In this document: in pieces, positions 324 through 62,299 of the stretch
Layout: each line of letters begins with the position of its first letter
Numbering within the stretch: the stretch's first letter is position 1
Program-made: the position numbers and the translations under genes
From: a virus
DNA length: 64,000 bases
Reading direction: 5' to 3' (one strand)
Virus record (IMG/VR): IMGVR_UViG_3300045120_000498
Span: 32,001-96,000 of that record
The notes under the pieces: model-generated
Seen by the model: the letters and a program-made list of their open reading frames with translations, nothing else
What the model was told of the DNA's origin: nothing
Databases searched by the model: none

Positions 324-689
324 TCAATCGTCCTCGCCTCGCAACACGCGAGCGGTCGCCACGTTCCGGGCGACACCATCCCAGCCCTCGACCACCCGCA
401 GGATGTCGTCCGGCCGGAACCGGATGATCCGGCGCGACTTGTCCAGCGCCACCTCGACCGTCGAATCCTCGCGCACGCCCGTCACGACGCCGTACCGGTC
501 GCCGCGCATCCAGTGATCCGTCGCCGGGTGCAACTCGACCCGCTGACCCACGCGCGGGGAGATGTAGACCGCCTCGCGCAGCCGCTCGTGGCAGAGTCCG
601 CCGTCCTTACTCGGCACCGCGCACACCAGCGGCCCCGTGGGGCCGCCGTAGCGATAGCCGACCTGCGGCCCATGCGTCGGACAGATCAT
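324..689 (-). CDS. Small SH3/KOW-like phage protein
   Basis: VGQRVELHPATDHWMRGDRYGVVTGV beta-barrel pattern; ATGA overlap with upstream gene. Confidence 0.75.
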   Translation of the reverse strand: MICPTHGPQVGYRYGGPTGPLVCAVPSKDGGLCHERLREAVYISPRVGQRVELHPATDHWMRGDRYGVVTGVREDSTVEVALDKSRRIIRFRPDDILRVVEGWDGVARNVATARVLRGEDD

Positions 690-844
690 GTCGCCGCCCT
701 CCAGGCGCGCCGGTCGCGCTTCGTGTAGCCCTTGCCCTTACCGCGCACGCCGCCGCGCAGCGCCTCCCGCTTCGCGAGCGCCAGCGCGTACTCGTCCCGC
801 AGCACCCGCCGCGGCAACGTCGTCGTGATCGTCGTCTTTGCCAT
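686..844 (-). CDS. Small basic hypothetical protein
   Basis: MAKTTITTTLPRR..., GGAGG RBS, coupled to neighbours on both sides. Confidence 0.65.
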   Translation of the reverse strand: MAKTTITTTLPRRVLRDEYALALAKREALRGGVRGKGKGYTKRDRRAWRAAT

Positions 845-1161
845 CACCAGCCTCCAGTCTGCTCGGCGTACCACTCCGCCCCGAAGGGCATCAGCGCCTC
901 CTCGCGGTCGCGCCGGTCGGCCTCCACCTGCTCGCCCCAGGCCGCAGCCTCGACCGCGTAGAACGAGCGCACCGTGCGCTTCACGTCGCCCGCGAAGTCC
1001 GGCTCGTCGTTCGTCGAGTCGAAGCCGCTGTCGGCCTCGCACTCCAGCGCGAGCAGCGCCGCCGCGTCGAACGTGTCGGCCGTGGCGAACACCTCTGCGT
1101 GCGACTCGAACTCGCCCGTGTAGTAGCTCGTGTAGGTCGTCTCGATCACGAGAGCAGCCAT
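844..1161 (-). CDS. Hypothetical protein, first gene after a boxed promoter
   Basis: MAALVIETTYTSYY...; GGAAAGG RBS. Confidence 0.75.
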   Translation of the reverse strand: MAALVIETTYTSYYTGEFESHAEVFATADTFDAAALLALECEADSGFDSTNDEPDFAGDVKRTVRSFYAVEAAAWGEQVEADRRDREEALMPFGAEWYAEQTGGW

Positions 1162-1170
1162 CGTGCCCGT

Positions 1171-1231
1171 CCTTTCCGCGGGTTCTTCCCGCACCCGGAG
1201 TGTAGCAGGTCTAGCGCACGTTGTGTGTATC
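1171..1231 (-). promoter_or_regulatory. Promoter/operator box + shifted -10 + hairpin-SD leader
   Basis: Box 1212-1231; TGCTACACT -10 9 bp downstream; GCGGG/CCCGC hairpin then GGAAAGG. Confidence 0.8.
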
Positions 1232-4740: not shown

Positions 4741-6463
4741 AGTAGTCCTCGGGGTCGTCCTCCGCCTCGTCGTCGAACACCTCGAACGCCGCGTCGCCCA
4801 TGTTCGGCCCGGCGTGGTAGCCCATCGACGCCGGATCGCCCACCTGCGACCGCTCGAACTCCAGATGATCCTCCAGCGGCACAACCTCCGTCCGCTGCGC
4901 GCCCGCCACGACCGCCTGCCGGTACAGCCACATCTCCGACGCCACCAGGTCGTACACCTCCGCCTGCGCGTAGTCGTCCGGCCCCGTCTTCTTGTAGCCC
5001 ACGACCACCTTGTCCACGTCGTCGATGGTCGCGTGCCGCACCAGCGCCCGCATCTGCGCGCCGTACCCCTCCGGCAGGTCCACCGGCAGCCAGTTCCGCT
5101 GCTCGCGCATCACCGCCATCATCGCGTCGATGGCCTCCGTCCGGCGGATCGACACCGTGCGTGTTTCCTCCCGCACGACCATCACCGCGCCGTCCTTCGG
5201 CGCCGAGTAGTTCACCAGGTAGACGATGCCCGGGAACTGATTCGCCAGCCCCATCGCCATCCGGTGCTCCGGCAGGTGATCGACGCACGCCATGTTCACC
5301 CGGAACTCGCGCATCTTCTCGGCCACCTCGTTGAACGAGTCGCACTCGCCGATCCACAGCGCCCGCTTCACACCGTCGCCCAGGTGCTCGCTGATCCGCA
5401 CGTTCAGCGCCCGCGTGGACGCCACGTCCACGCCCATCGTGACCAGGTTCACGCCGCCGTAGCCCGTCTCCATGTAGTAGAAGCCGCCCGCCGACTGCGC
5501 CGCTTGCAACACCGCCGACGTGAGCCGCCCTTCCTCCGGCGCGTATTCCTCGGCCAGGTCCTTGTTGTGGAACGTCGTGACCTCGTAAGGCCGCGTCGCC
5601 TTCGACGCCTTCACGATGCTCGCCAGCGCGCCGTTCTCGTTCGTCGCAACACGCGGCACGATCAGCCGCGGCGCGTGATAGCCGCGAATGTCGCGATCCG
5701 GGAACTCCGCCACCCACTCGCCGACGCCCACGTCGAGCGGCTTCCGGCACTGCCGACAGACCACCAGCACCCGGTCCTGATCGACGTTCTCCCAGAAGTC
5801 GATGTGCTGCCACGTCCCGCACCCGCACTTCACCATCCACCGCCGCTTGTCCGACGCTTCGTACTGACCGCTGACGCCGAACTCCGGCACCGACGGCACC
5901 CCGACCCGCCGGATCAGCCCGTGTTGCGAGCCGGACACGCGCCGCTCGGCGTCCGGGATGTTCTCCTGCGTGAGCGTGTCGTACTCGTCGAACGCGATGG
6001 TGTCGGCATCCACCGAGTCGAGCGCGCGCTTCACCTCCGAGCCACGGAAGTAGACGAACCCCAGACCGATCCGCTTCAGGCCCTTGTTCTGCACGTCCCG
6101 GCGGCTCGCGCGGCCCGACAGGTAGTCCGACCCGTCAATCAGCGTCTTCACCCGCGCGTCCGAGAAGTCGTACAACTGGCTCGCCGTCGGGAACACGTAC
6201 AGGCTCGTCCAGCCCTTCGTGTCGGCGTGGTACATCGACCACCGCACGAGCCACGCCGACACCCCGATCTGCGTCGCCTTCTTGACCACCAGTTCACGCT
6301 GATTCGCGCCCGCCTCGTATAGCTCGCGCTGGAACGGGAACCGGTCGAAGTCGAGCGCCGCCTTCGGCTCCGGCACCCGCAGCGCCCACGGCATGAACTC
6401 GACATCCAGCTTCTCGCGCTCCGCCGCATCCCGCTTCGCGCGAAGCTCAGACCGGGTGGTCAT
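4739..6463 (-). CDS. terL: Terminase large subunit, lambda GpA family
   Basis: FPFQRE adenine-binding motif, KKATQIGVS Walker A, IAFDEYD Walker B, CGCG...CRQC zinc finger, MGVDV nuclease motif. Confidence 0.9.
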   Translation of the reverse strand: MTTRSELRAKRDAAEREKLDVEFMPWALRVPEPKAALDFDRFPFQRELYEAGANQRELVVKKATQIGVSAWLVRWSMYHADTKGWTSLYVFPTASQLYDFSDARVKTLIDGSDYLSGRASRRDVQNKGLKRIGLGFVYFRGSEVKRALDSVDADTIAFDEYDTLTQENIPDAERRVSGSQHGLIRRVGVPSVPEFGVSGQYEASDKRRWMVKCGCGTWQHIDFWENVDQDRVLVVCRQCRKPLDVGVGEWVAEFPDRDIRGYHAPRLIVPRVATNENGALASIVKASKATRPYEVTTFHNKDLAEEYAPEEGRLTSAVLQAAQSAGGFYYMETGYGGVNLVTMGVDVASTRALNVRISEHLGDGVKRALWIGECDSFNEVAEKMREFRVNMACVDHLPEHRMAMGLANQFPGIVYLVNYSAPKDGAVMVVREETRTVSIRRTEAIDAMMAVMREQRNWLPVDLPEGYGAQMRALVRHATIDDVDKVVVGYKKTGPDDYAQAEVYDLVASEMWLYRQAVVAGAQRTEVVPLEDHLEFERSQVGDPASMGYHAGPNMGDAAFEVFDDEAEDDPEDY

Positions 6464-6498
6464 GCTCACCCGCCGCCGGATCAGGTCGGCGCCGCGGG

Positions 6499-7124: not shown

Positions 7125-7551
7125 GCCGCAGGCCCCGCTCGATCAGACACGCCTCGACGAACGTCCAGTCCACCGGCAGCGGCGGCTCCGACGGCCCGAA
7201 CCGCGTCTCCGACCCCTGTACCCACAGCGTGCCGTACTGCAACCGGTGCCCCTCGGGCATGTCGTTGTCGGTCACGACCGGCATCCGCACCCGGAACAGG
7301 CTCGTCTCCACCTCCATCCGCAGCTTCGTGCGCGCGCGGAGCGGCTGCCGCAGCGGCGGCATCTCGACCGGCGACTCGACCCGGTACGCGCCGCCGTCAT
7401 CGCGCCACCGGACAGCGCCGATGAACTCGGTCAGCGTGCCGCCGAACGATCCGTACAGCGCGATCCGGGTCAGCAGCATCTCCTCGTCGATCCCCAGCGG
7501 GCCGCCGACTCGCAACACAGTCGGCTTGCCGAATACGACCGCCCCGTCCAT
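7039..7551 (-). CDS. Hypothetical protein
   Basis: ORF track, GC3-rich codons. Confidence 0.6.
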   Translation of the reverse strand: MDGAVVFGKPTVLRVGGPLGIDEEMLLTRIALYGSFGGTLTEFIGAVRWRDDGGAYRVESPVEMPPLRQPLRARTKLRMEVETSLFRVRMPVVTDNDMPEGHRLQYGTLWVQGSETRFGPSEPPLPVDWTFVEACLIERGLRRDHCGYWEVDGRPMGTRRAAELVFGASV

Positions 7552-7563
7552 GCCCGAAGCGTA

Positions 7564-9884: not shown

Positions 9885-11159
9885 TCAAGCGAACAGGCTC
9901 AACTGCTGGAGCCGCTTGGCCGCCAGCTTCAGGTAGTCCGCCTTCAACTCGACGCCCACCGCGTGCCGACCGAGACGCCGCGCCACCAGCGCCGTCGTGC
10001 CGCTCCCCAGGAACGGGTCGAGCACCACGCACGGCCGCACCGGATGCGCGTCGAGCGAGACGCGCGGCCGGTACACCTGCACCGGCGTCACCGTGCCGTC
10101 CGGCTCGTCCACCATCACCGTCTCGAACTCGCCGTTGCACGAGCAGGTCGGCGCCCACCCGACCGTCTCCGTCTCCGTGAACCGCTGGCCGTTGTTCCCA
10201 CCGCCGTAGATACCGGCCCGCTTCGCCTCGTCGTACCGGCCCGGCCGGTAGCGAGGATCAGCCGGGTCAAGCTCGAACCGCTCCACCGACCGCCGCTGCA
10301 CCTCGCGCGCCCACGGCGCGCCGCACACCCCGCAGCAGCCACGCTCCGACGTGCCCGCCTTCACGCACGGCTCCACGAGCTTCTGCGGGAACGTCGCGAA
10401 GTGCGCGCCCGGATAGTTCTCCGTCGGGATCGTCCACACCGACCGCAGGTTCCGACCCGAGCCGTCGAAGCTGCTGCGGCCGCCGCCGCCCCCGGCCTGC
10501 TCGGTGTCGTTCTGGAACGCCGCGCCGTTCACGTACCGCACGTCGCGGAAGTTCGCCGACCGGCCGAACCCCTCGCCCTGCTCGCGCACCGCCTCCGCGT
10601 CGAAGAAATAGCGGCTCGCCTTCGTCAGCAGGAACAGGTACTCGTGCGCCGTCGTCGGTCGGTCCGTCGCCGCCTCCGGCATCGGGTTCGGCTTGTGCCA
10701 GATCACGTCCCGGCGTAGCCACCAGCCGTCGTCCTGGAGCGCCAGCGCCACCCGCCACGGCGCGCCCACCATGTCCTTCACCTTCATCCGCGGCAGCCGC
10801 GGTCGCGTCGGCAGGGCAGCGGCACCGCGATTCCGCGCCTGCTTCGAGGCAGCATTGCTCGGCGCGTCCCGCGAATAGCCGCCGTCGCCGACGTAGCTGT
10901 CGCCCAGGTTCAGCCACACCGTGCCGTCCGCTCGCAACACCCGCCGCACCTCGCGGAACACGTCCACCAGCGCCTCGACGAACTCGGTCGGCGTCGCCTC
11001 CAGGCCGATCTGCCCCGGCTCGCCGTAGTCGCGCAGGCCGAGATACGGCGGACTCGTCACCACGCAGTGCACCGACCCCGCGGGAAGCTCTCGCAACACC
11101 TCCCGCGCCTCGCCGTGGTAGAGACGGACATCGCCGTCATCCAACCACGGCGGCCTCAC
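9885..11159 (-). CDS. DNA methyltransferase, beta class (N4-C/N6-A)
   Basis: VTSPPY motif IV, HFATFP, VLDPFLGSGTT motif I; Cys-rich insert CCGVCG...CSC. Confidence 0.92.
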   Translation of the reverse strand: MRPPWLDDGDVRLYHGEAREVLRELPAGSVHCVVTSPPYLGLRDYGEPGQIGLEATPTEFVEALVDVFREVRRVLRADGTVWLNLGDSYVGDGGYSRDAPSNAASKQARNRGAAALPTRPRLPRMKVKDMVGAPWRVALALQDDGWWLRRDVIWHKPNPMPEAATDRPTTAHEYLFLLTKASRYFFDAEAVREQGEGFGRSANFRDVRYVNGAAFQNDTEQAGGGGGRSSFDGSGRNLRSVWTIPTENYPGAHFATFPQKLVEPCVKAGTSERGCCGVCGAPWAREVQRRSVERFELDPADPRYRPGRYDEAKRAGIYGGGNNGQRFTETETVGWAPTCSCNGEFETVMVDEPDGTVTPVQVYRPRVSLDAHPVRPCVVLDPFLGSGTTALVARRLGRHAVGVELKADYLKLAAKRLQQLSLFA

Positions 11160-14855: not shown

Positions 14856-15469
14856 CACAGGCCCGCCTCCTTTTCGTCCCGCGTGAGCACCGCATCCAGT
14901 GCTCGCAACACGCGCTTCAGGCCGCCCTTCAGCGCCGCGTCGCGCCACAGGCCGACGCCGCCGAGCACCGTCTTCAGGCTCGCCTGCACCGCCCGCATCT
15001 CCTCGTGCAGCCGGTCGGCGCGCGGATTCGGGATGTACCGCTCGGTCGGGCCGAACGCCTCGTCGATGGCCTCCATGTCCTCGTCGTCCGGCCGCACCAG
15101 CGGCCCGCGCGCGTCCTCGCGCAGGCGAGCCTCGTCCAACTGCCGCCGCAAGGCCGACAACTCGTCGTCCACGCCCAACTCCGGCCGGTTGTTCAGCAGG
15201 TGCAGCAGCGTCGCCTGCGCCTCGACCAGGTTCAGCGCCGCCTCCAGCGCCATCTCGCCCGCCGTGTACCGATCCGTCGCCACGTGCAGGTCGCGCGACA
15301 ACTGCGCGATGCGATCAGCGGCGTCTTCGGCTAGCCCTGCCCCAATCGGATCGCCTTCCTGCACCCAACTCCACGCTGCATCGCGAAGCTCCTTCTGGAT
15401 GCCGTCGTCGCTCACGCGCACGGCCTCAACCGGCACGTCCAGATTCTCGTCCACAGGCCCCTGAGCCAT
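14855..15469 (-). CDS. Coiled-coil hypothetical protein
   Basis: MAQGPVDEN...; hairpin plus GGAAAGGAG leader at 15477-15501. Confidence 0.7.
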   Translation of the reverse strand: MAQGPVDENLDVPVEAVRVSDDGIQKELRDAAWSWVQEGDPIGAGLAEDAADRIAQLSRDLHVATDRYTAGEMALEAALNLVEAQATLLHLLNNRPELGVDDELSALRRQLDEARLREDARGPLVRPDDEDMEAIDEAFGPTERYIPNPRADRLHEEMRAVQASLKTVLGGVGLWRDAALKGGLKRVLRALDAVLTRDEKEAGL

Positions 15470-18983: not shown

Positions 18984-19079
18984 CGTTCCTCCCGGTGTGT
19001 TGCGAGGCGGAGCCTGGTACGTCGCAGCCTCGGCCGCGGCCCCTCCGGCAGGGAGGCTCGCCCCGCAGTGCCGGAAACC

Positions 19080-20680: not shown

Positions 20681-21006
20681 TCGACCGCCAGGATCGCGCG
20701 CGCGGCCCGGCCACGCTCCGCGTCCGCCTCCAACTCGCGGCACTCATCCGCCAGCCGCAGCACCAGCGCCGCCAGGTCGTCCAGCCGGTCAGCCAGGGTG
20801 CTCGCAACACGATCCCCGTTCGACCGCACCTGCGGCCGCGCGACCTGCCCAGTGCGCGTCAACGAGTAGTACCGCTGCGCGATGGTCAGCGGCTTCACGC
20901 CGGTCGCAATCGCCACCCGGTTGATCGCCGCTTTCGGTCCCAGCCCATCGTTGATCAGGTCGGCCACCCGCTGCGCCGTCAGCAGCGTCGATTCGTTCGC
21001 GCTCAC
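20677..21006 (-). CDS. Putative HTH + coiled-coil protein
   Basis: AAINRVAIATGVKPLTIAQRYY helix-turn-helix-like segment. Confidence 0.55.
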   Translation of the reverse strand: MSANESTLLTAQRVADLINDGLGPKAAINRVAIATGVKPLTIAQRYYSLTRTGQVARPQVRSNGDRVASTLADRLDDLAALVLRLADECRELEADAERGRAARAILAVE

Positions 21007-21162: not shown

Positions 21163-21675
21163 TCACGCATCGACAACCGCCCCCGCTCCGCACGCGAACG
21201 CCGTCACCGCGACGACCTCCTTGTCGTCCCACTTGCGGCCCGCCAGCGTCAACGCCAACTCGCCCGCCAGCGCCAGCGCCGCGTTCTTCAGGCAGCCCTT
21301 CAACCGGCGGCCCGGCATCGTCCCCGGATTCGCCCACCAGTCGGCGAACTTCCGCCGCGTGTAGGTCGCCTTCGCCTGCGCGTTCACGAGCAGCTTGCGC
21401 GCGCCGCACTGGCACGCCTCGATGCGCGTCCCGCGCGCTCGCGCGATCCCGCTCGCGACCTGGTACTGCACCCGCCGCGCGTTCGCGGCCAGCAGCACGT
21501 CCACGTAGTTGCCGCCGCACACCGTCACGCGCGCCCGGTGCGTGAACGGATGCAGGAAGCAGAGTCGGTTCTGCTCGACCGACCGTTGCAGCGCCGTGCT
21601 CGCGTGCGCGGTGCCCGCCATCGGCACCGCCAGTGTTGCGAGAGCGAGCGTCATCGTCACCACTCGGCGTGTCAC
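21163..21675 (-). CDS. Exported Cys-containing protein with hydrophobic C-terminal helices
   Basis: Signal peptide ...LALATLAVPMAGTAHA-S; six Cys; start uncertain. Confidence 0.65.
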   Translation of the reverse strand: MTRRVVTMTLALATLAVPMAGTAHASTALQRSVEQNRLCFLHPFTHRARVTVCGGNYVDVLLAANARRVQYQVASGIARARGTRIEACQCGARKLLVNAQAKATYTRRKFADWWANPGTMPGRRLKGCLKNAALALAGELALTLAGRKWDDKEVVAVTAFACGAGAVVDA

Positions 21676-22545: not shown

Positions 22546-23010
22546 TCATTTGCCGGTGCCCAACTGCAACCGTCCGCCGTCTCGCAACACAGGGATCAGC
22601 GTCTCCCCGACGGTCGTGCCGTCCGGCGCCTCGATGAAGCTCAGGAACACGTCCTCGAACCGCACCAGCCCGAACTCGGCCGCCTTCAGCGTCGCCTCCA
22701 GGTAGTGCGCGATCCCACGCCATGCCTGCCGGTCGCGCTGCTCGGGCGAGAACCGCCAGCCGGTGCCGCGCGACAGCCGCTCCGGCGCCAGCGGGTTCAC
22801 CCGAATCCGCACCACCATCTTCACCAGTTCGCCGTCCGACTCGCGCAGGATCGGCCACACGAACCGGCAGAACAGCGCCCGCGGCTCCTCCCACGTCTCG
22901 TCGAACGAGACGCCCAGCGCGCCCGCCTGCTGGAGCCGCTTCCGAATCTGGCCCTGCGACCGCTCGATGGACACCGCCGTGTCCTCGTAGGGCGACTGCA
23001 CCGGACTCAT
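22546..23010 (-). CDS. Conserved phage hypothetical protein
   Basis: YEDTAVSIERSQGQI...LKAAEFGLVRFEDVFL...PDGTTVGE. Confidence 0.75.
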   Translation of the reverse strand: MSPVQSPYEDTAVSIERSQGQIRKRLQQAGALGVSFDETWEEPRALFCRFVWPILRESDGELVKMVVRIRVNPLAPERLSRGTGWRFSPEQRDRQAWRGIAHYLEATLKAAEFGLVRFEDVFLSFIEAPDGTTVGETLIPVLRDGGRLQLGTGK

Positions 23011-24319: not shown

Positions 24320-24521
24320 CGAAGAAGTCCAGGCCCCGGCCCATCGTGCCGCGCAGGTCGATCCACCCGACGTACGTCTCGCCGTCTCGCAACACGACCA
24401 GGTTCCCGAGTTCGTTGCCCATCACCACGTCGCCCGGCCGCAGCCGCTCATCGGCCAGCACCTCGACCAACTCCCCGATGGTGAGCGGCTGGAACGGCAC
24501 GCTGGCAGGCCAGTCGGTCAC
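24291..24521 (-). CDS. Small hypothetical protein, paralogue of 13186..13362
   Basis: See paralogue alignment. Confidence 0.65.
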   Translation of the reverse strand: MTDWPASVPFQPLTIGELVEVLADERLRPGDVVMGNELGNLVVLRDGETYVGWIDLRGTMGRGLDFFDEGADRAAG

Positions 24522-26838: not shown

Positions 26839-27078
26839 TCAGCCACCACGCAGCCGCTCTGCGTCCGACGGCGACAGCAGCCCCTCGCGATCCGCTCGCA
26901 ACACCGCCAGCGCCGACCACAGGCACGCCGCATCCTCCACCGCGGACATCGCCATCACCTGCGCTCGACCCTCCTGCGTCTCCGCCGCGTTCGCCATCGT
27001 CGAGTACGTGTTCCACGACGACCGCTCACCGCGAAACCACGCCCGCGCCTCGTCCACCCGCACCTGGATGTCGGTCAC
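26839..27078 (-). CDS. Hypothetical protein
   Basis: GTGA overlap start. Confidence 0.55.
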   Translation of the reverse strand: MTDIQVRVDEARAWFRGERSSWNTYSTMANAAETQEGRAQVMAMSAVEDAACLWSALAVLRADREGLLSPSDAERLRGG

Positions 27079-28079: not shown

Positions 28080-28303
28080 GTCCAGTCTTCCAGGTGCCAG
28101 TCGTCCGGCGGCTCGGGCACCACGACTCGCAACACGCAGTCGTCGCGCAGCCGCAGTTCCATCTGGCCCAGCACCACCTCGTCGTTCTCGGTGACCGGCA
28201 GCAGCATCACGCCGTGCCGCATCGCCAGGCCCATGACCACGCCGCAGTAGAGCGCGTGCCGGGTGCGCCGCTCGGCCTGCTCGGCGGTCAGCAGGTCGGT
28301 CAT
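28076..28303 (-). CDS. Hypothetical protein
   Basis: Coupled ORF. Confidence 0.6.
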
Positions 28304-35746: not shown

Positions 35747-36058
35747 TCACGTCGCCTCCGGCCCGGCGCTCCACGACTTGCCGTCGAACACGAACGCCAG
35801 GACGCCATCGACCGGCGTCAGCGGACCGGGCGCCATCGTCGGCTCGACGCCGCGCAGCCCGCGGTCGGCGAAGTACGCGCTGGCCTCCGGCGTCTCGGCC
35901 AGCGACTCGATGTCGCCACCCTCGATCAGCGCGGACACCTCGCTGTCCGACGTGTAGTGCTCTCGCAACACGTCCAGCGCGTCCTTGTCGTCGCGAAGGA
36001 AGACCGACCGGTACAGGTCGTGCTCGGGGTCAACCAACTGGTACAGAATCGCGGTCAC
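35747..36058 (-). CDS. Hypothetical protein
   Basis: GTG start with GAGGGAG RBS. Confidence 0.65.
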   Translation of the reverse strand: MTAILYQLVDPEHDLYRSVFLRDDKDALDVLREHYTSDSEVSALIEGGDIESLAETPEASAYFADRGLRGVEPTMAPGPLTPVDGVLAFVFDGKSWSAGPEAT

Positions 36059-37404: not shown

Positions 37405-40400
37405 TACCGACCTCCCCTGCGCACCGTCACGGTCGTCCCCATCTGGGAGGCGCCGGTCTGCACCGAGACGCCCGCCTGGACGCCGCCGCTCACCGTAGCA
37501 ATCGTGCCTCCGCCGTTGCCGTTCGCGCCGACTCCGGCCAGGACCCGCCCCTCGTCGTCGCTCACCGCGGCGACCACGCCGCCCACCCGGCTGACGATGG
37601 CCTCGACGGTCGGCGTGCCGAACGTCAGTGTGCTGGCGATCCCGTCCGCCTCGATGTGCGCCTCGGTCGCCATCAGCAGGTCGGACTGGGGCGAGAGCAG
37701 GCCCGCGTACGCCGTCGCCAGCGCCCGCCGGATCGCGCTCACCGGCGCGACCGCTCCGCCCAGCGCCTTCCCGGCGGACCGCTTCACCAGGCCGACCGGC
37801 GCCAGCGCGCCGCTGATCAGCAGCGGAACCGCGTGCGACACCGAGTCTGCGCCGGACAGCGGCAGCGCCGCCGTAAACCGCTTCGCGCTCGACTTGACCC
37901 GCGCCCCGGTCGGCGCCAGCGCCCCGGCCAGCGGCTTCCCAACCGACCGCCGCAATGGCGCGGTCAGCGCGAGCGCGCCCGACAAGGCCACCAGGAACGC
38001 GCGTGCCGTCGCCAGCGTCGCCGCAGGCGAGACGCTGCCCGTCATCCGCCGCGCCGTCTGCCGCGTCTCCGTACCCGCCGGAACGGTCGATCCGGTGTAC
38101 CGGGTGGTCGTCGTGCGGATCACGATGCTCGTCGGCGTCGCCGAGCCGACCGTCCTCGGCGTGCTCGCACGACGCATGATCCCGATAGGGTTCAGCGCCG
38201 CCGACAGCGCGACCAGGTACGCCTTCGACGTAGCGAACGTACTGGCCGGAGTGATCGTGCCGGTCGCCTTCTTCGCCGTGTTGCGAGCCACCGCGCCGGT
38301 CGTGCCGACCGCGCCGGTCAGCGGCTTGCCGGTCGAGCGGAACAGGTTGCCGATGGGCGCCAGCGATCCGGCCAGCGCCCGCGTGGTCGAGAACCGCAGC
38401 GTCGCGGCCGGAGTGATCGTCCCGGTCAGCCTCCGCGCGAGCGACCTCGCGACCACACCCGCGGGCGCCACCGTGCCCACGAACGTGCGTGTGAGCTTCC
38501 GCGTCTCCGTCCCGGTCGGCGCGACCAGGGCCGACAGCGCCTTGCCGGTGTTGCGAGCGAGCGTGGCTGCCGGAGCGACGGTGCCGCCCATCGACAGCAG
38601 GAACCCGCGGATCGGCGTCACCGCTCCCGCCGGAGCCAGCGCGCCAGTCATCGTCTTCGTCATCGCGCGCTTCAGCGTCGCGGCTGGAGCGAGCGCCGCC
38701 GTCAGCGCCAGCGCGTAGGCGTGCGACATGGCCGTCACGCTGGCGGTCGGTGTGATCGCGCCGGTCGGCTTCTTGCCCGTCTGCCGCGTCTCCGTACCGG
38801 CCGACGTGATCGCGCCCGCCAGCGAGCGCGGGATCGACTTCGTGGCTACACCGGTCAGACCGAGCGCGGCCGTCAGCGTCCGAGCGAGCGCCCACCGCAG
38901 CGCCGACGTGCCCGGCGTGATCGACCCGCCGACGTTCTTCCGCGTCTGCTGGACGAGCGCCGACGGCCCCGGCGTGATCGCGCCCGCGAACGCCCGCACG
39001 AACGCCCGCGACGCAGCCAGCGTCCCAGCCGGAGTCAGCGTCCCGGCCACGCCGTGCGCGGTCGAGCGGGCCAGCGCACCGACCGACGTGATCGTCCCGG
39101 CCAGCGCGCGCGGGATCGACTTCGTGAGCAGCCCGACGGGAGCCACCGCGCCCGCCGTCTTCTTGCCAGTCTGCCTTGTCTCGACCCCGGCCGGAGTGAT
39201 CGTCCCGGCCATCGGGTGCGACGTGTTGCGAGCGACGACGCCGGTCGGCGAGAGCGTGCCCGCCGTGAGCTTGCCCATCGACCGCTTCTCCACGCCCGCC
39301 GACGTGATCGTCCCGGCCGCCGTCACCGCTCGCGTCAGCGTCCGCGCGAGCACGCCCGCCGACGTGACCGTGCCCGCCATCAGGTGCGTAGTCGAGCGCA
39401 CCTCGGCGCCGGTGGGCGAGAGCGTGCCGCCCGGCGTGATCGGATAGGTCGTCGTCCCAGCGACCTTGTTCGCCGCCAGCGCGCCGGTCGGCGCCGTCGA
39501 GCCGGTCAGCGTCCGCGTGATCGAGTAGGCGTCCGCGCTCGGCCCCGGCGTGACCGTCCCGGTCAGCGTGCGTGCCCACTGCCGCGTCTCCACGCCAACG
39601 GGAGTGACCGCCGCGTCCGGAGCCACCCACCCAGTCCGGGCCGCCGTGGCGGACCCGCCGCGGAACACGTCCACCCGCGCGGTCGTGTCACCGAACTCGA
39701 ACGCGAACCGGCCCGCCACCGGAGGGATCAGCGTGTTCGTCGCGGTCAGCACCAGCGACCAGCCGCCCGACCTGGTGAAGCGGTAGAAGTCAATCTTCGG
39801 GCCGACCTGCCGCACGCCCACCGTATCGCCCGCCGCGAACGGAACCGCCGCGGATGCCAGCACGCCGGTGTCGGCCCCGCCCACGTTGCCGCGCAACTCC
39901 CACGTGAAGTTCGGCGACCCCTGCACGAGCCGCAGCGCGTACGCCGTGAACGTCGAGCCGGGGTTCGCGATGCCCCACCAGAACTTGACGTACGACGCCG
40001 CCGTCGGCAGCACCGGCACCTCGAACTGGTAGTCGAACGGCGGCGAGTGAGTGATCAGGCCGCGGACACCGCCGCTCGCTGCCCCCGCCGCCATCCGCAG
40101 CGCCGAGACGTTCACGTTCGCGATCCCGTCGTTCGCCGAGACGGTGTTCCAAATCCCGGGGCCGCCAACGTCCACCGTGCCGTTCGCGCGGTCGAAGTCG
40201 TCCAGCGTCGTTGACTTGGACGGATACCTGCCGACCCGCGTGTACGCCCCCGTCGGCCCGCCGCTCGTGAGCGTGCCAGTGAACGTCCGCGCCCACGACT
40301 TCGCGAGCGCACCGACCGGCGACACCGCACCCGTCAGCAGCCGCGCCAGCGACTTCGCCAGCACGCTCGCTGGCGTGATCGTGCCCGCCAGCGGCTTGCC

Positions 40401-45996: not shown

Positions 45997-46367
45997 GTCT
46001 CGGGCACCTCGCGCGGGACGCGCTTGCGGGCGAACGCCGCCGCGCGTACCGCGATGATCTGGGATCGCAGCCACACTGGGCCGGACCCGAGGATTGCGAC
46101 TGGCGTCGGGACCAGGCCGTTCCTGATCCACTTCGCGAGTCGCGGCTTCTCGACGGACAGGATCACCGCCGCTTCACCCGTGCCGACAAGCTCGTCGTCG
46201 AGCGGTGGTAGCTCCACGTTCAGGCGCTCCAGCACGCTCGCAACACGAACCTGCTTGACCCCGCTGTCGATCTTGGCCTGTAGCCACGCTCGTGTCTCCG
46301 GGGCGAGCATCGGCGCAAGCGAAGCATCGACCTGATCGTCCATTGGAGTCTCGATGCTGCTTGCCAT
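45993..46367 (-). CDS. AlpA/excisionase-like HTH regulator
   Basis: LVGTGEAAVILSVEKPRLAKWIRNGLVPTPVAILGSGPVW. Confidence 0.8.
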   Translation of the reverse strand: MASSIETPMDDQVDASLAPMLAPETRAWLQAKIDSGVKQVRVASVLERLNVELPPLDDELVGTGEAAVILSVEKPRLAKWIRNGLVPTPVAILGSGPVWLRSQIIAVRAAAFARKRVPREVPET

Positions 46368-51737: not shown

Positions 51738-52004
51738 TCAGTCCCGCAGCCACTCCAGCGGGATCGGGAAGTCGTCCTCGTGATCCTCGACGCCGACCAA
51801 CCGACCGTCGAACGCCGCCTTGAACTCGTGCACCGCCATCGCCTCCCGGTACACCCGCCGCAGCCGCGACGACACGTGCCCGGTCGAGAGCATCAGCGAG
51901 TAGTCCGGCAGCCCCGCGACCATCTCTCGCAACACGACCAGCGCCTCCGCCGAGTACGTCGCCGCGCCGGTCGCGCCCGGCGGCTTCACCCGGTACGTCT
52001 TCAC
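51738..52004 (-). CDS. Hypothetical protein
   Basis: GGAGGG RBS, GTGA overlap. Confidence 0.6.
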   Translation of the reverse strand: MKTYRVKPPGATGAATYSAEALVVLREMVAGLPDYSLMLSTGHVSSRLRRVYREAMAVHEFKAAFDGRLVGVEDHEDDFPIPLEWLRD

Positions 52005-53122: not shown

Positions 53123-54423
53123 TCAGCGCCCCGCGCGTGCGCCTCCGCCAGCGCCCCCTCCAACGCCGCCAGGATCACCGCATCCTCCTCGTTCGACTTG
53201 TCCTTCCGAGGCACGTGCTCCACGTACCGCGTCGAGAGCGTCTTCCGGTACAGCCGGTCCGGATTCACCTCGCCCAACGCCAGCGCCGTCTCCAACGCCT
53301 CCCGCGTCGGCCGCTCGACCCGCTCAGACGCCACGTAGCCGTACACCCGCGGCCCCTTCGCATCCCGGATCGGCACCGGCCCATGCACGTCCGACCACGC
53401 CTGAAGCGCCGCCCGCGCCTGCTTCGCGACCGCCGCGCCGACCACCAGTTGCCGCGCCGTCCGCTGCGCATCCACCGCGTCGATGATCTTCCCCTCGCGG
53501 CGCAGGTTGATCGGGATGGGACACGCCTCCGGCCGCAGACAGAACGAGCACCGCTTCCCCGGCGACGGCGGGAACAGCCGCTCCGACCACGACCGGTCGA
53601 ACCGCTCCACCAGCGCCGCCATCTCCAACCGCACGTCCTCCAGCGCCTCCCGCGTCAGCGTCGCCTCGCGCGGCTCCGAGTAGCGCGGATAGAACTCGCG
53701 CAGCGTCACCCGCTCGATGCTCGGGTAGTTGTCGAACACCAGCAGCGCGTAGAACCGCTGCTGGAAGTAGCCGCCGAACGACACCTCCGCGGTCGCCGGA
53801 AGCGCCCACGTGTCCTTGAAGTCGATCACGATGGCGTCCCGGTCGCCGTGCTCCGCGAACAGCGCGTCAAGCTGCCCCGTCACCGTCCGAGACACGTAGC
53901 CACCGTGGCCGTCCGGGTAACGCACCGTCGCCGACAGCCGTTCCTCGACCGCCACCAGGTTCGACACGTCCCACTCCGTGTCATGCGCGAACTTCTTGAC
54001 CACCATGTAGAGGTCCTTCACCTCGCGCAACGGCAGGTTCATCAGTTGCGACGCGAACTCGTGCCCGCACTCGCGGCACTTCCGGTGCGACCGCGCATCC
54101 ATCCCCCGCGCGATGTCCGTCGAACCGCACACCGGACACTGCCGGTCGGCGTCGTCCTGTCGCAACACGTCATGCAGGATCGCCAGCGCCGCATCGACCG
54201 GGATCGACCCCTCCTTCATCTTCGCCATGTCCAGAAGGCACTGCGCAGCGACCCGGTGGAAGATCGTCCCGCGCGCCTGCGGCGTCGTCGCGCCGATCCG
54301 ATCCTCCGCCTCCCACCGCGCCGACAACGCGCACTCGTCGAAGGCCGACAGCATCGACTGCCGCACACGCGGGAACTTCAGCACCGCCGCCGCGTACGGC
54401 CCCAGCCCCTCGGTCGTCACCAT
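53119..54423 (-). CDS. PD-(D/E)xK (RecB/Cas4-like) exonuclease, partner of Bet
   Basis: RQS...FDEC, RGTIFH, GQLD...IDFK, QQRFYA, CSFC...C; inserted CPVC...CREC finger. Confidence 0.88.
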   Translation of the reverse strand: MVTTEGLGPYAAAVLKFPRVRQSMLSAFDECALSARWEAEDRIGATTPQARGTIFHRVAAQCLLDMAKMKEGSIPVDAALAILHDVLRQDDADRQCPVCGSTDIARGMDARSHRKCRECGHEFASQLMNLPLREVKDLYMVVKKFAHDTEWDVSNLVAVEERLSATVRYPDGHGGYVSRTVTGQLDALFAEHGDRDAIVIDFKDTWALPATAEVSFGGYFQQRFYALLVFDNYPSIERVTLREFYPRYSEPREATLTREALEDVRLEMAALVERFDRSWSERLFPPSPGKRCSFCLRPEACPIPINLRREGKIIDAVDAQRTARQLVVGAAVAKQARAALQAWSDVHGPVPIRDAKGPRVYGYVASERVERPTREALETALALGEVNPDRLYRKTLSTRYVEHVPRKDKSNEEDAVILAALEGALAEAHARGAE

Positions 54424-54677
54424 TCCTCCCTCGCTCGGGTAGCGGCCTCGATGTGCTCTCTCGCAACACGGTACGCCCTGTCCTCCCGGACGCCCCGGCG
54501 GTAGCGGATCAGCACCTCGATCAGCCCCGCCAGCGCCACGCCGGACACGATCAGGAACATCACGTCGAGCGGCACGTAGTTCGTCGCCCAGTCGTACGCC
54601 GCCGTCAGCGCAGGCCACCCCGTCGCGCCGGTCACGAACCCAGCGATCAGCAGCGCGATCACCGCCAACCACCTCAC
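54417..54677 (-). CDS. Two-TM membrane protein
   Basis: Two hydrophobic helices. Confidence 0.65.
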   Translation of the reverse strand: MRWLAVIALLIAGFVTGATGWPALTAAYDWATNYVPLDVMFLIVSGVALAGLIEVLIRYRRGVREDRAYRVAREHIEAATRAREEW

Positions 54678-56305: not shown

Positions 56306-58093
56306 CTACACGTTCCTCACGTCTATCGTCACGGACGACCTCGACCACGCCGCCACCGCACTGCCGGACCGGTCAGTCCGCATACAGACCAGCAGCATCC
56401 CGTCCGTCAGCGCGGGCATCGCCTGCCAACCGCTGTCGATGACCTGGACTCCGGTGCCCGCCAGCGAGCCAGACGCCCCAACCACGGCAGTCAACGTACC
56501 CGCGCCGCCCGTGTCGGTGATGTTCACGTACCGCAACAAAACCGTCCACGTGCCGTTCGTCGCCACGCTGATCGCCGCCGCAAACTGCCAGCGCCACTGG
56601 ATCGAGCCACCCATCGCATTGATCCCCGACTTCAGCAGCGGAATGCCCATCTGCACGTAGCCGAGGTTCGATTGCGTCCACCCGAAAGACGCATCGGCGC
56701 GCATGTCCAGCCCGTTCGACGTGCTGTCCGTGACAACGCCGCACGACTCGAAGAACGCGAAAATCCGCATCGGGTTCAGCCGCGACGCGCCGCCCGCCGT
56801 GTCGTAGATGCCTTGCGTAAGCTGGTGCCGGTGGTCCGCTCGCGCATACCGCTTCGAGACGCCGACCGCTGCCGCCGAGTCGTCCACCACCACCGGCGCC
56901 ACCGCCGACGCCTGATTGATCACGAACGCCGTCGTCGCCACGTCCACGCTCACCGAGTCCACGGCCATCGTCGGCGCGGTCATCATCCCGGTCGCCGACA
57001 GCGTGGCGGCCTGGAACGACCCGTTCATCACCAGCCCGCCAGGGGCCGACCGCTTGATCGTCGTGTCAGGCAGCGTCGCGCCGCCCGGCCCGAACGCGAC
57101 CCGCCCGACGCCAGCCGTATCGACGCCCACCTCTGCCCGCGCCTCGGTGTCGCCCAGCGTGTACGCCCGCATCGCCATCCGCGTCGTCGCGTTCGGCGCG
57201 ATCACGTCCAGCATCCGCGCCGTCCCGGCCACGTCGCCGCGCACCTGGAGGTTGTCGTCCGTGCTCCACGTGTCGGCCGCAGACCGGTACAGGTTCGTGT
57301 CCGGCGGCGACGTGCCGAAGCCCGCCTCGATCATCGGGAAGCCGGTGGCCGTCAGGCCCAGCCGCATCCGTGGCTGCGCGTCGCCCGCCACGAACGCCCG
57401 CACCGACCCCGCCGCGCCCGCCGGTTCGTACAGGTCGATGAACCGCGCCGCGCCCGCCGTATCGCCGCGCACGCCGAGCGAGTCGTCCGTCCGCAGGTCA
57501 TTCGCCCCGGCCCGGTACAGGTTCACGTCCTGCGCCGCCGCGCCAGTGCCCATCAGCAGCGTGCCGTCCGCTCGCAACACGACCCGCGGCAGCGCGTCGC
57601 CGCGCACCCGGGCCTGAAGGAACGTCGCCGCCGCCGTGCCGCCGATGAAGTCCTGCCAGTCCGCCGTCCGGATGTCGAGGATCACCCGCGTGATCGACGT
57701 GCCGTCCCACTCGACCGACCCGATCTGCCTCGACAGCGGCGCCGCAGGCGTGCCGGACGAGCGAATCTCCATCCCGAAGGCGTACACCGTCGAGTCCGAC
57801 TCCGGCGGCCCCGGCGCGAAGCTGTTGTCCGTCGCCGTCAGCCACAGCGTGTGCGTCGCCGCGGCGCCGCCCGGGTCGGCCGCCGTGATGTTCCCGACGA
57901 TGTACCGCCACTTCGCGCCGACGGCTGCGCACACCTGGCCGTTCCCCGCCGACGCAGCCACCTGCACCGTCGTCGCGTTCACCAGCGACACCCGGAAGTT
58001 GGGCGACACGTACGTGCCGATGAACTCCTGAATCTGATCGACCCACTGCTCCGGGAGCGCGTCCCCGTAGTTCAGGATACGATTTTGCGTCAA
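56306..58093 (-). CDS. Tail fibre / receptor-binding protein
   Basis: Three GD..PR...D.NLYR..A....TDD repeats; AVGVSKRYARADHRH motif; baseplate operon position; TTG start inferred. Confidence 0.75.
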   Translation of the reverse strand: MTQNRILNYGDALPEQWVDQIQEFIGTYVSPNFRVSLVNATTVQVAASAGNGQVCAAVGAKWRYIVGNITAADPGGAAATHTLWLTATDNSFAPGPPESDSTVYAFGMEIRSSGTPAAPLSRQIGSVEWDGTSITRVILDIRTADWQDFIGGTAAATFLQARVRGDALPRVVLRADGTLLMGTGAAAQDVNLYRAGANDLRTDDSLGVRGDTAGAARFIDLYEPAGAAGSVRAFVAGDAQPRMRLGLTATGFPMIEAGFGTSPPDTNLYRSAADTWSTDDNLQVRGDVAGTARMLDVIAPNATTRMAMRAYTLGDTEARAEVGVDTAGVGRVAFGPGGATLPDTTIKRSAPGGLVMNGSFQAATLSATGMMTAPTMAVDSVSVDVATTAFVINQASAVAPVVVDDSAAAVGVSKRYARADHRHQLTQGIYDTAGGASRLNPMRIFAFFESCGVVTDSTSNGLDMRADASFGWTQSNLGYVQMGIPLLKSGINAMGGSIQWRWQFAAAISVATNGTWTVLLRYVNITDTGGAGTLTAVVGASGSLAGTGVQVIDSGWQAMPALTDGMLLVCMRTDRSGSAVAAWSRSSVTIDVRNV

Positions 58094-59222: not shown

Positions 59223-60607
59223 CAGGCGATCCCCGCCAGGCTCGAAATGAACGCCACCTCGCCGGTCGCGACGACCACGTTCGCGGCCGTCGCGTTCAGC
59301 GTCAGACCGGTCACGTCCGCGATCCCGGTGACGTTGAAGAACCGCGCCATCACGTGGTTGAAGATCACGTCACCGCCCGGCGGCAGCCGGTTCACGTACT
59401 CCTCCAGCGCCGACTCCACGTCATCGCGGATCGCGATGGTGCCGCCCGTGCCGTCCAGCGAATAGCCCATGTCGCACGTGACCGACGCGGCGATCACGAC
59501 CCCCTTCAGCACCGGCGTCGAGACGGCCACGATGGCGCCGATGGGAGCCAGCCCGTTCCCCTGACCGCCTTGGTACACGGTCGTGCCCGCAGGCACCGTC
59601 CCCGTGCCGCCCGTGCAGCCGGTCAGCGTCGTGCCCGTCTTGCCCGTGTAGCTCACCACCTGCGGCCCCGACGCGAGCCGCACGACCACCTTCCCGGCGT
59701 TGTCCATCCCGCTCGTGGACGCCACGTTCAGCGTCGCCACCGGCAACGTCTGCGAGCCGGTCGAGAGCGTCGAGAACTGGGGCGGGTCGATCTGCCCCTG
59801 CACCGCATCGACCTCCGCCGACGACGAGAACGGTCGGTTGTTCAGGTCGGTCACCACCAGCGACACCGTGCCCGGCCCGAACGCCAGCGGCGTCACGGCC
59901 GCGTACCCGATCCCCGGGTACGCCAGCGCCCACCGCCGGTAGTCCGTCTGCGTGCCCGCGCCCGCGGCGCCCTGCCACGCCAGCAGCACCCGGTCGCGAT
60001 ACACCTCGTCCGACTCCACGTCCGACCCGCCGCTCGTCGGCAGCGCGTTGTAGACGCTCGCGATCCCCGACACCGGCGACTGCAAGTCGTCGATCTGCCC
60101 GGCCGTCACGTTCCCGAACATCGACGCTTCCTCGGCCACGATGTCCAGCGTCACGACCTGCTGGCCGATGCCGATACTACCGCCCGACACCACGTGGAAC
60201 ACGACAGGCTCCTCGTCGGCCGACTGCGGCGTCGTCGCCACCAGCGTGCCGGTGCCGATCAGGATGGCCGCGGACACGGCCACGCCCGCGTCGAACGTCA
60301 CCTGCCCCGTCGCGGCCACCGAGTCCTTCCGAGGCACGCCCACCGACTCCCCCAGGTAGTCCAGGTAGTCGCCCCACGAGAACGCCGGGAACGTCGCCGC
60401 GATGGCCTCCGTCGCCACCACGTCGTACAGCCGCCCAATCTCCAGGATGAGCGGCTGCGTCAGCGTGTGATACATGCCGCCCTCGACCGTATCCACGTAG
60501 TCCGCGTCGGTCACCGACAGGCCCGCGTTGATATCGGCGTCCACCCGATTCCGGATCGACGCCACCGTCTCCGTCACGAGCGGGAGAAAATCGACCAAAT
60601 CTGGCAT
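59222..60607 (-). CDS. Baseplate J-like protein with internal beta-domain insert
   Basis: YLDYLGE..G..RK...ATG.V.F; G..GNV..G.I; GG.D.ESDE.YR.R; GT..DY..WAL; GPGTV. Confidence 0.9.
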   Translation of the reverse strand: MPDLVDFLPLVTETVASIRNRVDADINAGLSVTDADYVDTVEGGMYHTLTQPLILEIGRLYDVVATEAIAATFPAFSWGDYLDYLGESVGVPRKDSVAATGQVTFDAGVAVSAAILIGTGTLVATTPQSADEEPVVFHVVSGGSIGIGQQVVTLDIVAEEASMFGNVTAGQIDDLQSPVSGIASVYNALPTSGGSDVESDEVYRDRVLLAWQGAAGAGTQTDYRRWALAYPGIGYAAVTPLAFGPGTVSLVVTDLNNRPFSSSAEVDAVQGQIDPPQFSTLSTGSQTLPVATLNVASTSGMDNAGKVVVRLASGPQVVSYTGKTGTTLTGCTGGTGTVPAGTTVYQGGQGNGLAPIGAIVAVSTPVLKGVVIAASVTCDMGYSLDGTGGTIAIRDDVESALEEYVNRLPPGGDVIFNHVMARFFNVTGIADVTGLTLNATAANVVVATGEVAFISSLAGIA

Positions 60608-61180
60608 TTACATCAGCCTCGTGGAGAAGGGCACCACGTCGTTGTTGTCGAGCCGCAACCGGAAAGTCACGTCCACGCCTTCCTCGTCGTCGGTGATGCT
60701 CGTCGCGAAGTCGTCGATGCCGGTGATCTTCGGGTGGAACATCAGCGCCTCCTCGACCCGCTGGCGCAGGCTCGCGACGGCGGAGCCGGTGAACTGGCCG
60801 CCGATCAGCCCGTCGGCGTCCTCCAGCCCGTAGTCCTCCGAGTGGATCGCGAGCGCACCACGCGGCGTGTAAAGCGCCATCTCCACCCACTGGAACAACT
60901 GCGTCATGCCCGTGATCGCCAGCGGCGCTCGCGCCCGCCGCGGCGACGGCACGAACCGGCCCGTGCTGAAGTCGAACGCCCACGAGCGGCCCAGCGTGTA
61001 AAGCTCGGGCGCCGTATCGACCACCACGTCGTCCTGCTGGATGTCGTCGCCGAACAGCGTCGGATCGAGCAGGCCCGTCTCGATGGCGTCCAGTTCGACG
61101 GACGGCGAGAAGTCGTCGTCGTCACTGGCGACGAGCGATCCAAGTTCCTCATCAGGGTCAACGAAGCTCACTGCCACCAT
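60608..61180 (-). CDS. Baseplate wedge/sheath initiator (DUF2634/gp25-like)
   Basis: WAFDF..G.F...QWVEMAL.T.R.....S.DYG; R.VEEAL.FHP.I. Confidence 0.85.
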   Translation of the reverse strand: MVAVSFVDPDEELGSLVASDDDDFSPSVELDAIETGLLDPTLFGDDIQQDDVVVDTAPELYTLGRSWAFDFSTGRFVPSPRRARAPLAITGMTQLFQWVEMALYTPRGALAIHSEDYGLEDADGLIGGQFTGSAVASLRQRVEEALMFHPKITGIDDFATSITDDEEGVDVTFRLRLDNNDVVPFSTRLM

Positions 61181-61201
61181 CCATCTTAGGGATCGAAGCT
61201 G

Positions 61202-62299
61202 TCACGTCTTCACCAGCCAGTTGCCGGTGAAGAACGGTCCGACGTTCGCGTGCGGGTCGGCCGGGCTATTGCCAGCCTGGCCGATGGAGTGCGAGTGCGC
61301 CGTCTGCGTGATCGTGTGCGCGTGCGGGTCCACCGTGTGATCGTGCGCGGTCGGCGTGAACGTGTGCGAGTGGTCGGTCTGCGTGCCGTTGTAGCCCGTC
61401 GCACCCGTCCCGGCCGTAGTGCCCCACTGGGCATTCATCAGCAGGTCGCCGGGGTTCACCGCCGTGCCGGAGGCGTACCCCACCGGCAGCACGACGTGCG
61501 TCGTGCCGATGGTGCCCGTTGCGCTCGCCGTCTGGATGTTCGCGGTCGTGTTGTTGATCGTGATGGCCGCATTGGCAGTGCCCGTCGAGCCGCCGTGATC
61601 GTGCGCGGGCATCTGCCCAATCGTCAGCCGCACCGTCTCCGTGCCGCCGCGCGTGCCGAGCGCGTGCGTGGTCGCATCCGCCACCGTGTCCAGCCCGTTC
61701 GCGCCGACCGGCCCTGTCGCGCTCAGGGCGCCCATGAAGAACCGCCCGCGGCCGTCCGGCAGGTTGAACGTCGTGGTCGTGTCGCCCGGCCCGTAGCTCG
61801 TGCCGATCACCGCGAACAGCGCCGCGTACGTCACCCGGCTCACCGCCCGCCCGTCGCACAGCAGCCACCCCGCCGGTTCCGTCGAGCGCGCCGTCGGCTT
61901 CAGGTCGCCCGGCGACCACGCGGCCGCGCCCGCCGTCACCAGCGCCGCGCTCACCGCCGCCGTGATCGCGTCCGCCACCCACGACTTCGACGCCTGCTCC
62001 GCATGGGACTTCAGCGGCGTCTCGCTGATCACCGCCACCGCCACCAGTTCCTCGTTCATCGCCGGGACCAGCACAATCGTGTCGCCCACCGCGATCCCCA
62101 CGTCCCGGTCGTACTGGCGCACCTCCTGCGACACGACCAACTCGTCCGAGTCGATCACGATGTCCGCCGTCGTCAACTCGACCTCCAGCGGAACCACCGC
62201 TCGAACGATCCCGTACTCCGCCGCCCGCTTCTCCGTCGCCATCGCTCGCAACACAAGGTTCGCGACGCCCCGCGCGGCCTTGTCCGACTCGCGGCTCAC
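61202..62299 (-). CDS. Baseplate spike-like protein fused to tail-collar domain and HxH needle
   Basis: N-terminal OB-like segment (VGDT.VL); GWLLCDG...Y..LF..IGT.YG.GD..TTFNLPD.RGRF; five HxH motifs. Confidence 0.8.
   Translation of the reverse strand: MSRESDKAARGVANLVLRAMATEKRAAEYGIVRAVVPLEVELTTADIVIDSDELVVSQEVRQYDRDVGIAVGDTIVLVPAMNEELVAVAVISETPLKSHAEQASKSWVADAITAAVSAALVTAGAAAWSPGDLKPTARSTEPAGWLLCDGRAVSRVTYAALFAVIGTSYGPGDTTTTFNLPDGRGRFFMGALSATGPVGANGLDTVADATTHALGTRGGTETVRLTIGQMPAHDHGGSTGTANAAITINNTTANIQTASATGTIGTTHVVLPVGYASGTAVNPGDLLMNAQWGTTAGTGATGYNGTQTDHSHTFTPTAHDHTVDPHAHTITQTAHSHSIGQAGNSPADPHANVGPFFTGNWLVKT

Follow-up and report, generated by a model that had tools for sequence, protein, structure and literature searches.

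Short exact words dispersed along phage genomes have, to our knowledge, rarely been described, and as far as we know the purpose of the nick sites of phages T5, tf and phiKMV is still open. DNA uptake sequences (the USS of Pasteurellaceae and the DUS of Neisseriaceae) are exact 9- to 12-mers that occur in either orientation, often within coding regions, where they take the least costly reading frames, and they fill the host chromosome to a density of about one per kb. In phage tf, the word TACTRTGMC occurs in 14 copies, 11 of them identical, or one per 3.3 kb, and all of these sites are nicked in virion DNA (PMC3517423). Variants with a single substitution are few in tf, and it was proposed that the sites co-evolve with a phage nickase (PMC3517423). 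The stoperators of cluster A mycobacteriophages are asymmetric sites present in tens of copies and bound by a monomeric reader; their motif varies from one phage to its relatives and co-evolves with this reader (PMC6550527, PMC9283540). Over-representation of a short asymmetric word has also been found in Chi-enriched phages such as LLS and P1, and the enrichment occurs in phages without a recombination (Rec) module of their own (PMC12315714; Zheng et al. 2025). The subject of this study is another such word, the 10-mer CTCGCAACAC, which is repeated along the genome of a soil phage. It was first noticed in a stretch of 64,000 nucleotides (hereafter the window), which corresponds to bases 32001-96000 of a virus record of 127,514 bp with 70% G+C (IMG/VR record IMGVR_UViG_3300045120_000498). 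The word is held by purifying selection, and a phage-encoded protein that acts on DNA may read it.

A ten-base word repeated through the genome

The window contains 26 exact copies, 18 as CTCGCAACAC and 8 as GTGTTGCGAG on the + strand, where dinucleotide shuffles average 0.13 and never exceed 2. In the whole genome the word is the commonest 10-mer, with 47 copies (33 on the + strand and 14 on the other), which gives a density of 369 per Mb, or about one per 2.7 kb; a 4th-order Markov model expects 0.44 (P ~1e-76). Called genes contain 40 of the copies; when synonymous codons are shuffled within genes, the count averages 0.94 and reaches 5 at most, and it is 0.07 when the codon order is shuffled. 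The initial annotation, made from the sequence of the window, had placed the 26 copies and their 18/8 split correctly, and its estimate of about 0.1 copies expected by chance is close to that of the shuffles. It had asked whether the excess would persist under codon-preserving and high-order Markov nulls, and the excess survives both.

Words with one, two and three mismatches number 14, 82 and 925 genome-wide, so that the one-mismatch number fits the others; in the window, 5 one-mismatch words were seen, and 6.6 are expected for words with 0 or 1 mismatch. Tolerance is found at position 1 only. The 9-mer core TCGCAACAC occurs 53 times genome-wide, and the core variant GTCGCAACAC lies at window positions 5643 and 54159, both of which had already been reported. 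No flanking consensus or extended motif was detected around the copies, in agreement with the initial annotation, nor was any hairpin or conserved structure, and the flanks are mutually unrelated. The sites recur in independent assemblies of several samples and studies. A full-text search of the literature with the word in either orientation returned only primers and unrelated sequences.

The strand ratio of 33:14 (2.4) suggests a preferred orientation at first sight. However, this bias is only apparent, because the coding strand is G-rich and the sense spelling is easier to make. Under Markov models, the sense spelling is expected 1.3-3.0 times as often as the other, and near-cognate words split 59:23 at two mismatches and 602:323 at three. 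Copies in the two orientations are intermingled throughout the genome and show no polarity toward either end. Thus the check for an orientation tied to replication or packaging, which the initial annotation had called for, revealed no such bias. A ratio no different from the compositional null lends no support to models that require a single orientation (Chi, translocase guides, stoperators, promoters, RNA targets), and either orientation appears to serve. The spacing of the copies is slightly more even than random (coefficient of variation 0.76 vs 0.98, P = 0.024), and their position within genes is uniform. No link to promoter-defined transcription units was found, 8 of the 24 units being copy-free against 9.1 expected.

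About 85% of the copies are intragenic, about seven lying outside called genes, and the use of reading frames is very uneven. Among copies in mRNA sense, 21 are read as GTG TTG CGA (V-L-R), six as xGT GTT GCG AGx (xVAx) and two as TGT TGC GAG (C-C-E), while nine copies in the opposite orientation are read as xCT CGC AAC ACx (x-R-N-T) and two as TCG CAA CAC (S-Q-H). The frames used are those that cost the fewest rare codons and awkward residues. TTG accounts for 8.8% of Leu codons and CGA for 3.6% of Arg codons, and 21 of the 109 CGA codons fall within the motif. The word spells 21 of 28 VLR[ADEGV] peptides, all nine [APST]RNT, both CCE and both SQH, where codon usage predicts 0.31 word-spelled copies in total. 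No spacing rule was found for the unoccupied VLR sites, whose distance to the nearest copy is as for random positions. The peptides themselves are commoner than a rough estimate made by hand from amino-acid frequencies, which suggests that residues were altered to fit the word. The frames given in the initial annotation (VLR, xVAx, CCE, xRNT, SQH and, if the gene starts at the upstream ATG, LAT at 21633) proved correct, as did its impression that TTG and CGA are rare elsewhere. The copies and core variants in the window are the following (window coordinates, strand):

338..347, +, CTCGCAACAC, mRNA sense GTG TTG CGA G (RVLRGE); kept in relatives L004 and L006
5643..5652, +, GTCGCAACAC, 9-mer core variant
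5921..5930, -, motif in terL, read S-Q-H; SEH in relatives; kept in L001, L004-L007, L010 and L013
6588..6597, +, motif, VLR frame, in a 96-amino-acid gene that some population variants are without
7509..7518, +, motif, VLR frame, in a 170-amino-acid gene upstream of terL; kept in 84%-identity relatives
10931..10940, +, motif in the N6/N4 methyltransferase gene (RRVLRADG); VLR via GTG CTC CGC in relatives
11090..11099, +, second motif in the methyltransferase gene (EVLREL)
14902..14911, +, motif, VLR frame
18997..19006, -, motif in a 5' untranslated region, just upstream of the Shine-Dalgarno sequence
20801..20810, +, motif, xVAx frame (DRVAST)
21633..21642, -, motif, L-A-T if the gene starts at the upstream ATG
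22581..22590, +, motif, VLR frame
24386..24395, +, motif, VLR frame
26895..26904, +, motif, VLR frame
27348..27357, -, motif, xRNT frame (PSRNTA)
28126..28135, +, motif, VLR frame
31318..31327, -, motif, xRNT frame (DARNTL); ASNT in relative G409
35962..35971, +, motif, VLR frame
38278..38287, -, motif, ARNT, in a repetitive fibre-like gene of 1488 amino acids
38548..38557, -, motif, ARNT, same fibre-like gene
39223..39232, -, motif, ARNT, same fibre-like gene
46237..46246, +, motif, 11 nt upstream of a called start codon
48284..48293, +, motif, read C-C-E, in a RusA-domain gene
51926..51935, +, motif, VLR frame
54159..54168, +, GTCGCAACAC, 9-mer core variant
54460..54469, +, motif, xVAx frame (YRVARE)
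57571..57580, +, motif, VLR frame, in a 595-amino-acid gene
62245..62254, +, motif, VLR frame, in a tail-collar-domain gene

No two copies in the genome are closer together than those in the methyltransferase gene (10931-11099), which lie 159 bp apart near its 5' end. In three other soil runs, population variants are without the 96-amino-acid motif-bearing gene (window 6497-6785) and also without most of a SNase/DPBB-domain nuclease gene (window 13363-14466).

The word is held by purifying selection

Close relatives are represented by contigs L001 and L004-L006, at 92-97% nucleotide identity, and by L007, L010 and L013, at about 85%. In these contigs every aligned site is kept letter for letter. 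Relatives at no more than 97% identity cover nine sites, and across them 0 of 90 motif positions vary (relatives at 84-97% identity), against 11.7% of other coding positions; the probability of such retention is 1.4e-5 with matched codon phase and 0.002 for whole 10-mer windows. The antisense copies in terL and in a GMC-family oxidoreductase gene are as conserved as the sense copies. Three IMG/VR fragments at 98% identity match at all seven further sites that they span, and L007 has one additional copy, in DNA without a counterpart in this genome. These data show that the sites are held by purifying selection; relatives that keep the amino acids and freely change the synonymous positions of the motif, the alternative raised in the initial annotation, were not seen.

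Selection is unusually legible in this system, as the wordless sister lineages show the ancestral codons and the creation of each site can be read as substitutions. In the relative G409 (88 kb), peptides that are conserved between the two phages are encoded by GTG CTC CGC and TCA CAG CAC, where this phage has GTG TTG CGA and TCG CAA CAC. At other sites of the word the residue differs as well: G409 has ATG CTG CGA GAG (MLRE) and ATC CTG CGA GAG (ILRE) for VLRE in this phage, and GCA TCG AAC ACG (ASNT) where this phage has ARNT with the word. Likewise, the terminase reads GSQH here and GSEH in five of the six closest relatives. Several sites needed two or three substitutions, amino-acid changes included. 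From these near-cognate codons of the homologues, it follows that the word was made by point substitutions and not by cassette insertion. Origin by insertion of a 9-bp cassette was considered and rejected, since the alignments show substitutions and no gaps. It had been proposed in the initial annotation that selection acts on DNA rather than on protein and that the word is a previously unrecognised cis-signal. This is now supported by the codon-aware nulls, the exact retention in relatives and the changed residues.

Distribution of the word and genome of the phage

No copy of the word is present in 20 related virus records (terL at 36-66% identity, 1.5 Mb in total). Three of these relatives, taken whole (88, 135 and 130 kb), showed no equivalent intragenic word in a search for exact words, which a degenerate motif could escape; their top enriched words are their own hairpin and Shine-Dalgarno cassettes (counterparts of CCCGCGGAAAGG, see below) and tRNA T-loops. 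The word is lineage-specific, and it may have arisen so recently that sister lineages are without it. In a 14-mer scan of IMG/VR, three or more copies were found only in 98%-identical relatives among the at least 117 loci listed, which weakly suggests that unrelated phages are without the word. Scans of metagenome contigs, and a scan of viral contigs with terL alone, gave no match.

The only lead to a host comes from the GMC-family oxidoreductase gene, at record positions 29357-30985 just left of the window (17922-19550 in L004). This gene, next to one for a small FAD-SLDH-like subunit, seems to be an auxiliary metabolic gene; the proteins most similar to its product, with 76-80% identical amino acids, are encoded on the chromosomes of soil Actinomycetota and of Ilumatobacteraceae metagenome-assembled genomes. 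The five genomes with the closest homologues have 4-6 copies of the word per 4.8 Mb, which is the level of the reversed-word control, and 401 class-level and 401 phylum-level Actinomycetota genomes have at most 20 copies each. The survey covered about 810 Actinomycetota genomes in all. It includes genomes flagged as unpublished (G267, G377, G040, G034, G047, G036, G028, G019 and G308 in one sample; G537, G426, G587, G786, G635, G470, G647, G442, G736, G563, G502, G674, G719, G742 and G507 in the other sample), and the conclusion rests on none of them. As far as tested, within the genomes searched, the word is not a host word, and the search of candidate hosts suggested in the initial annotation thus gave no enrichment.

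Two actinobacterial genomes, G371 and G288, have perfect 59-60-bp intergenic tandem repeats at several loci, with a unit that contains GGGGCTCGCAACACCGGCTCAC (for example L097, which is G288 contig C9:26300-27200; the others are L098-L102). These repeats account for a small excess of the word in the two genomes. A CRISPR array was considered for these copies and rejected, as they are intergenic tandem repeats with neither a repeat-spacer array nor a link to this phage.

The phage is a member of a large uncultured clade, in which the longest contigs measure about 120-145 kb and several phages have direct terminal repeats, and it occurs in several soil metagenomes. No cultured relative was found, the terL gene matching GenBank phages at 27% identity at most. 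The record is classed in IMG/VR as linear and about 88% complete. All of the roughly 195 genes predicted by a gene call based on GC3 (G+C at third codon positions) lie on the minus strand; the GC skew is strong and constant across the 127.5-kb genome, and transcription is fully unidirectional. Recognisable products include a GpA-type large terminase, an N6/N4 DNA methyltransferase, RecT, a PD-(D/E)XK exonuclease, baseplate J, a tail-collar protein, RusA, Ku, an SNF2 helicase, a zeta-toxin-domain protein, SSB and one tRNA-Trp. No polymerase, primase, integrase, resolvase or ParB was seen in this 88% complete record. A single open reading frame of 4149 amino acids (record 6646-19095) bears four copies of the word and has homologues at 40-44% identity in all three relatives taken whole. 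The end of the record (127400-127514) is rich in long homopolymers, with a run of 13 G and a run of 19 C, and could be either a real feature of the terminus or an assembly end.

The genome also carries a promoter/operator box, gATACACAC-N3-GTGTGCTAnnnT, in about 23-28 copies at window positions 1212-51085 and beyond (for example at 7048, 8718, 58488 and 61858 of the genome sense strand). Most of these boxes are followed by a short GC hairpin and an CGCGGAAAGG Shine-Dalgarno cassette; CCCGCGGAAAGG, which represents this cassette, occurs 14 times. The relatives have the same architecture with other words, namely CCCCGCAGAGAGGA in G409 and CCGACCAAGGAG in G406 and G415. A half-site common to the box and the repeated word was considered and rejected, since the sequences differ.

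A proposed reader of the word and known systems

In the genomes searched the word is not a host word, and the copies show no preference of orientation beyond that of composition; this points to a reader that acts on duplex phage DNA and is probably carried by the phage. Our favoured reading, to which we give a probability of roughly 0.5, is that the word, with its strict core TCGCAACAC, is read by a sequence-specific, lineage-specific and most probably phage-encoded protein that acts on DNA. Such a recogniser would be exact, asymmetric and indifferent to orientation, and would find its site on duplex phage DNA about every 2.7 kb. The word itself is written into whichever gene lies there, at near-cognate places, and is then maintained by purifying selection. 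From the all-or-none specificity, we infer an enzyme-like reader rather than a typical regulator.

What such a protein would do can be suggested only tentatively. Possibly, the phage has an autonomous system in which one of its proteins recognises the word and thereby distinguishes the DNA of the phage from that of the host, or processes the former, for instance by programmed nicks on both strands or by a phage nuclease that spares the DNA so marked. If so, it would be a phage-owned counterpart of Chi or of uptake sequences. By analogy with phages tf, T5 and phiKMV, site-specific nicking or processing of phage DNA is the likeliest single mechanism, though still an unlikely one when taken by itself. 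In this case, breaks at the word might seed recombination-dependent replication in a phage that has SSB, RecT, the exonuclease, RusA and Ku but no recognisable polymerase or primase.

Several points weigh against a phage-encoded reader. Pfam and PHROGs searches of the small lineage-specific genes, most of which have no assigned function, yielded no candidate, and about 110 genes are specific to the lineage, so that co-occurrence singles out none of them. The methyltransferase is no obvious reader, unless its specificity has changed, because relatives without the word share it. The nick sites of tf are all on one strand and those of phiKMV-like phages on the non-coding strand, whereas 30% of the copies here are on the other strand. 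Finally, the host lead is one auxiliary gene at 76-80% amino-acid identity, which leaves room for a reader in the host.

A host factor is the alternative that fares best, although we consider it unlikely. The word would restrain a helicase-nuclease (AdnAB or RecBCD) or a defence nuclease in the manner of Chi, or else serve as a decoy operator that titrates a host DNA-binding protein, and the phage would have accumulated it to survive in one particular host. As a Chi, with ten fully specified bases, it would be longer than any Chi sequence known to us (5-8 nt). Restriction to one lineage is expected if the word tracks a host, Chi-rich phages exist at comparable densities (PMC12315714), and the operator of a titrated regulator would be rare in the host, which fits the 4-6 copies in the genomes with GMC homologues. 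However, no sampled Actinomycetota genome is enriched, the maximum being 20 copies and the best candidates being at control level, and the strand ratio is that of the compositional null with no polarity toward the ends. Moreover, the phage owns RecT, an exonuclease, SSB and Ku, whereas among lambdoid phages it is those devoid of a Rec module that are rich in Chi (PMC12315714).

It is improbable that the word is a by-product of mutational or repair drive without any functional signal, be it methylase-linked very-short-patch repair, as proposed for HIP1, or biased gene conversion. HIP1 does offer the example of a word that saturates coding sequence with no reader known, and here the DNA methyltransferase gene of the phage itself bears two copies. 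However, relatives with an orthologous methyltransferase have none, and the word is not a palindrome. A conversion drive would be expected to deplete the one-mismatch neighbours, and no depletion is seen; several sites took two or three substitutions, some of them amino-acid-changing, and the sites are under purifying selection.

A signal in RNA or translation, with GUGUUGCGAG in mRNAs as the target of a small RNA or a protein, or as a pause site of rare codons, is very improbable. It would suit a genome with all genes on one strand, in which 33 of the 47 copies are in mRNA sense and 21 of them read GTG TTG CGA with two rare codons. The 14 antisense copies, however, occur in exactly the proportion given by the raw material, and those in terL and the GMC oxidoreductase gene are conserved like sense copies. 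In addition, sense copies occur in three frames, the copies lie evenly along genes without regard to transcription units, and conserved structure is absent. Chance, codon bias, repeated protein domains or an assembly artefact can practically be dismissed, since every null model fails at least 40-fold and the same sites, with unrelated flanks, appear in independent assemblies of several samples and studies, even though three copies lie in one repetitive fibre-like gene and one copy may derive from a host gene, the conserved peptide PQARNTE being already spelled with the word in two host genomes.

If a phage-encoded reader is found, it would be a highly specific DNA-recognition protein for 9-10 bp and a new example of a virus labelling its own genome; the practical limit is that the phage is uncultured.

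Among the analogues named in the initial annotation, Chi shares with this word the over-representation of a short asymmetric sequence in a phage genome at similar density. However, Chi is a word of the host genome, used in one orientation and enriched in phages without a recombination module, and none of the three holds here. The searched hosts are not enriched, the orientation is at its null, and the phage has its own module of RecT, PD-(D/E)XK exonuclease, SSB, RusA and Ku. With uptake sequences the word has in common its exactness, its use in either orientation and its cheapest reading frames. Here the comparison fails on saturation of the host, as none of the approximately 810 sampled Actinomycetota genomes is enriched. 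HIP1 of cyanobacteria (GCGATCGC) is likewise written into genes in all frames, with its function unsettled, but it is palindromic, methylase-linked and found in a cellular genome, whereas this word is asymmetric and confined to the phage, candidate hosts being not above chance. Words that guide translocases (KOPS/SRS) have a strong strand skew co-oriented with translocation, in contrast to the compositional skew seen here.

Stoperators resemble the word in being tens of asymmetric sites with a lineage-specific sequence (47 here, and none in relatives at terL identity of 66% or less). Yet the features that define them are different. They are 13 bp long and tolerate variation, whereas this word is 10 bp long and all-or-none. 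They mostly face one way with respect to transcription, while here 70% of the copies do so, which is the compositional null in a genome of co-oriented genes. The stoperator repressor also binds the early lytic promoter and serves temperate immunity. Here about 85% of the copies are intragenic, the phage promoter box ATACACAC-N3-GTGTGCTA is unlike the word, and neither integrase, resolvase nor ParB was found in the 88% complete record.

The nick sites of tf differ from this word in strand use (14 of 14 on one strand, against 33:14). In other respects the likeness is considerable. The nick sites of T5, of tf and other LUZ24-like phages and of phiKMV-like phages are also exact, asymmetric words of about nine bases, in tens of copies and at about one per 3 kb. 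Near-variants are scarce in tf as they are here, and the tf genome has direct terminal repeats, as do relatives of this phage. The nick-site words of tf are the closest documented case.

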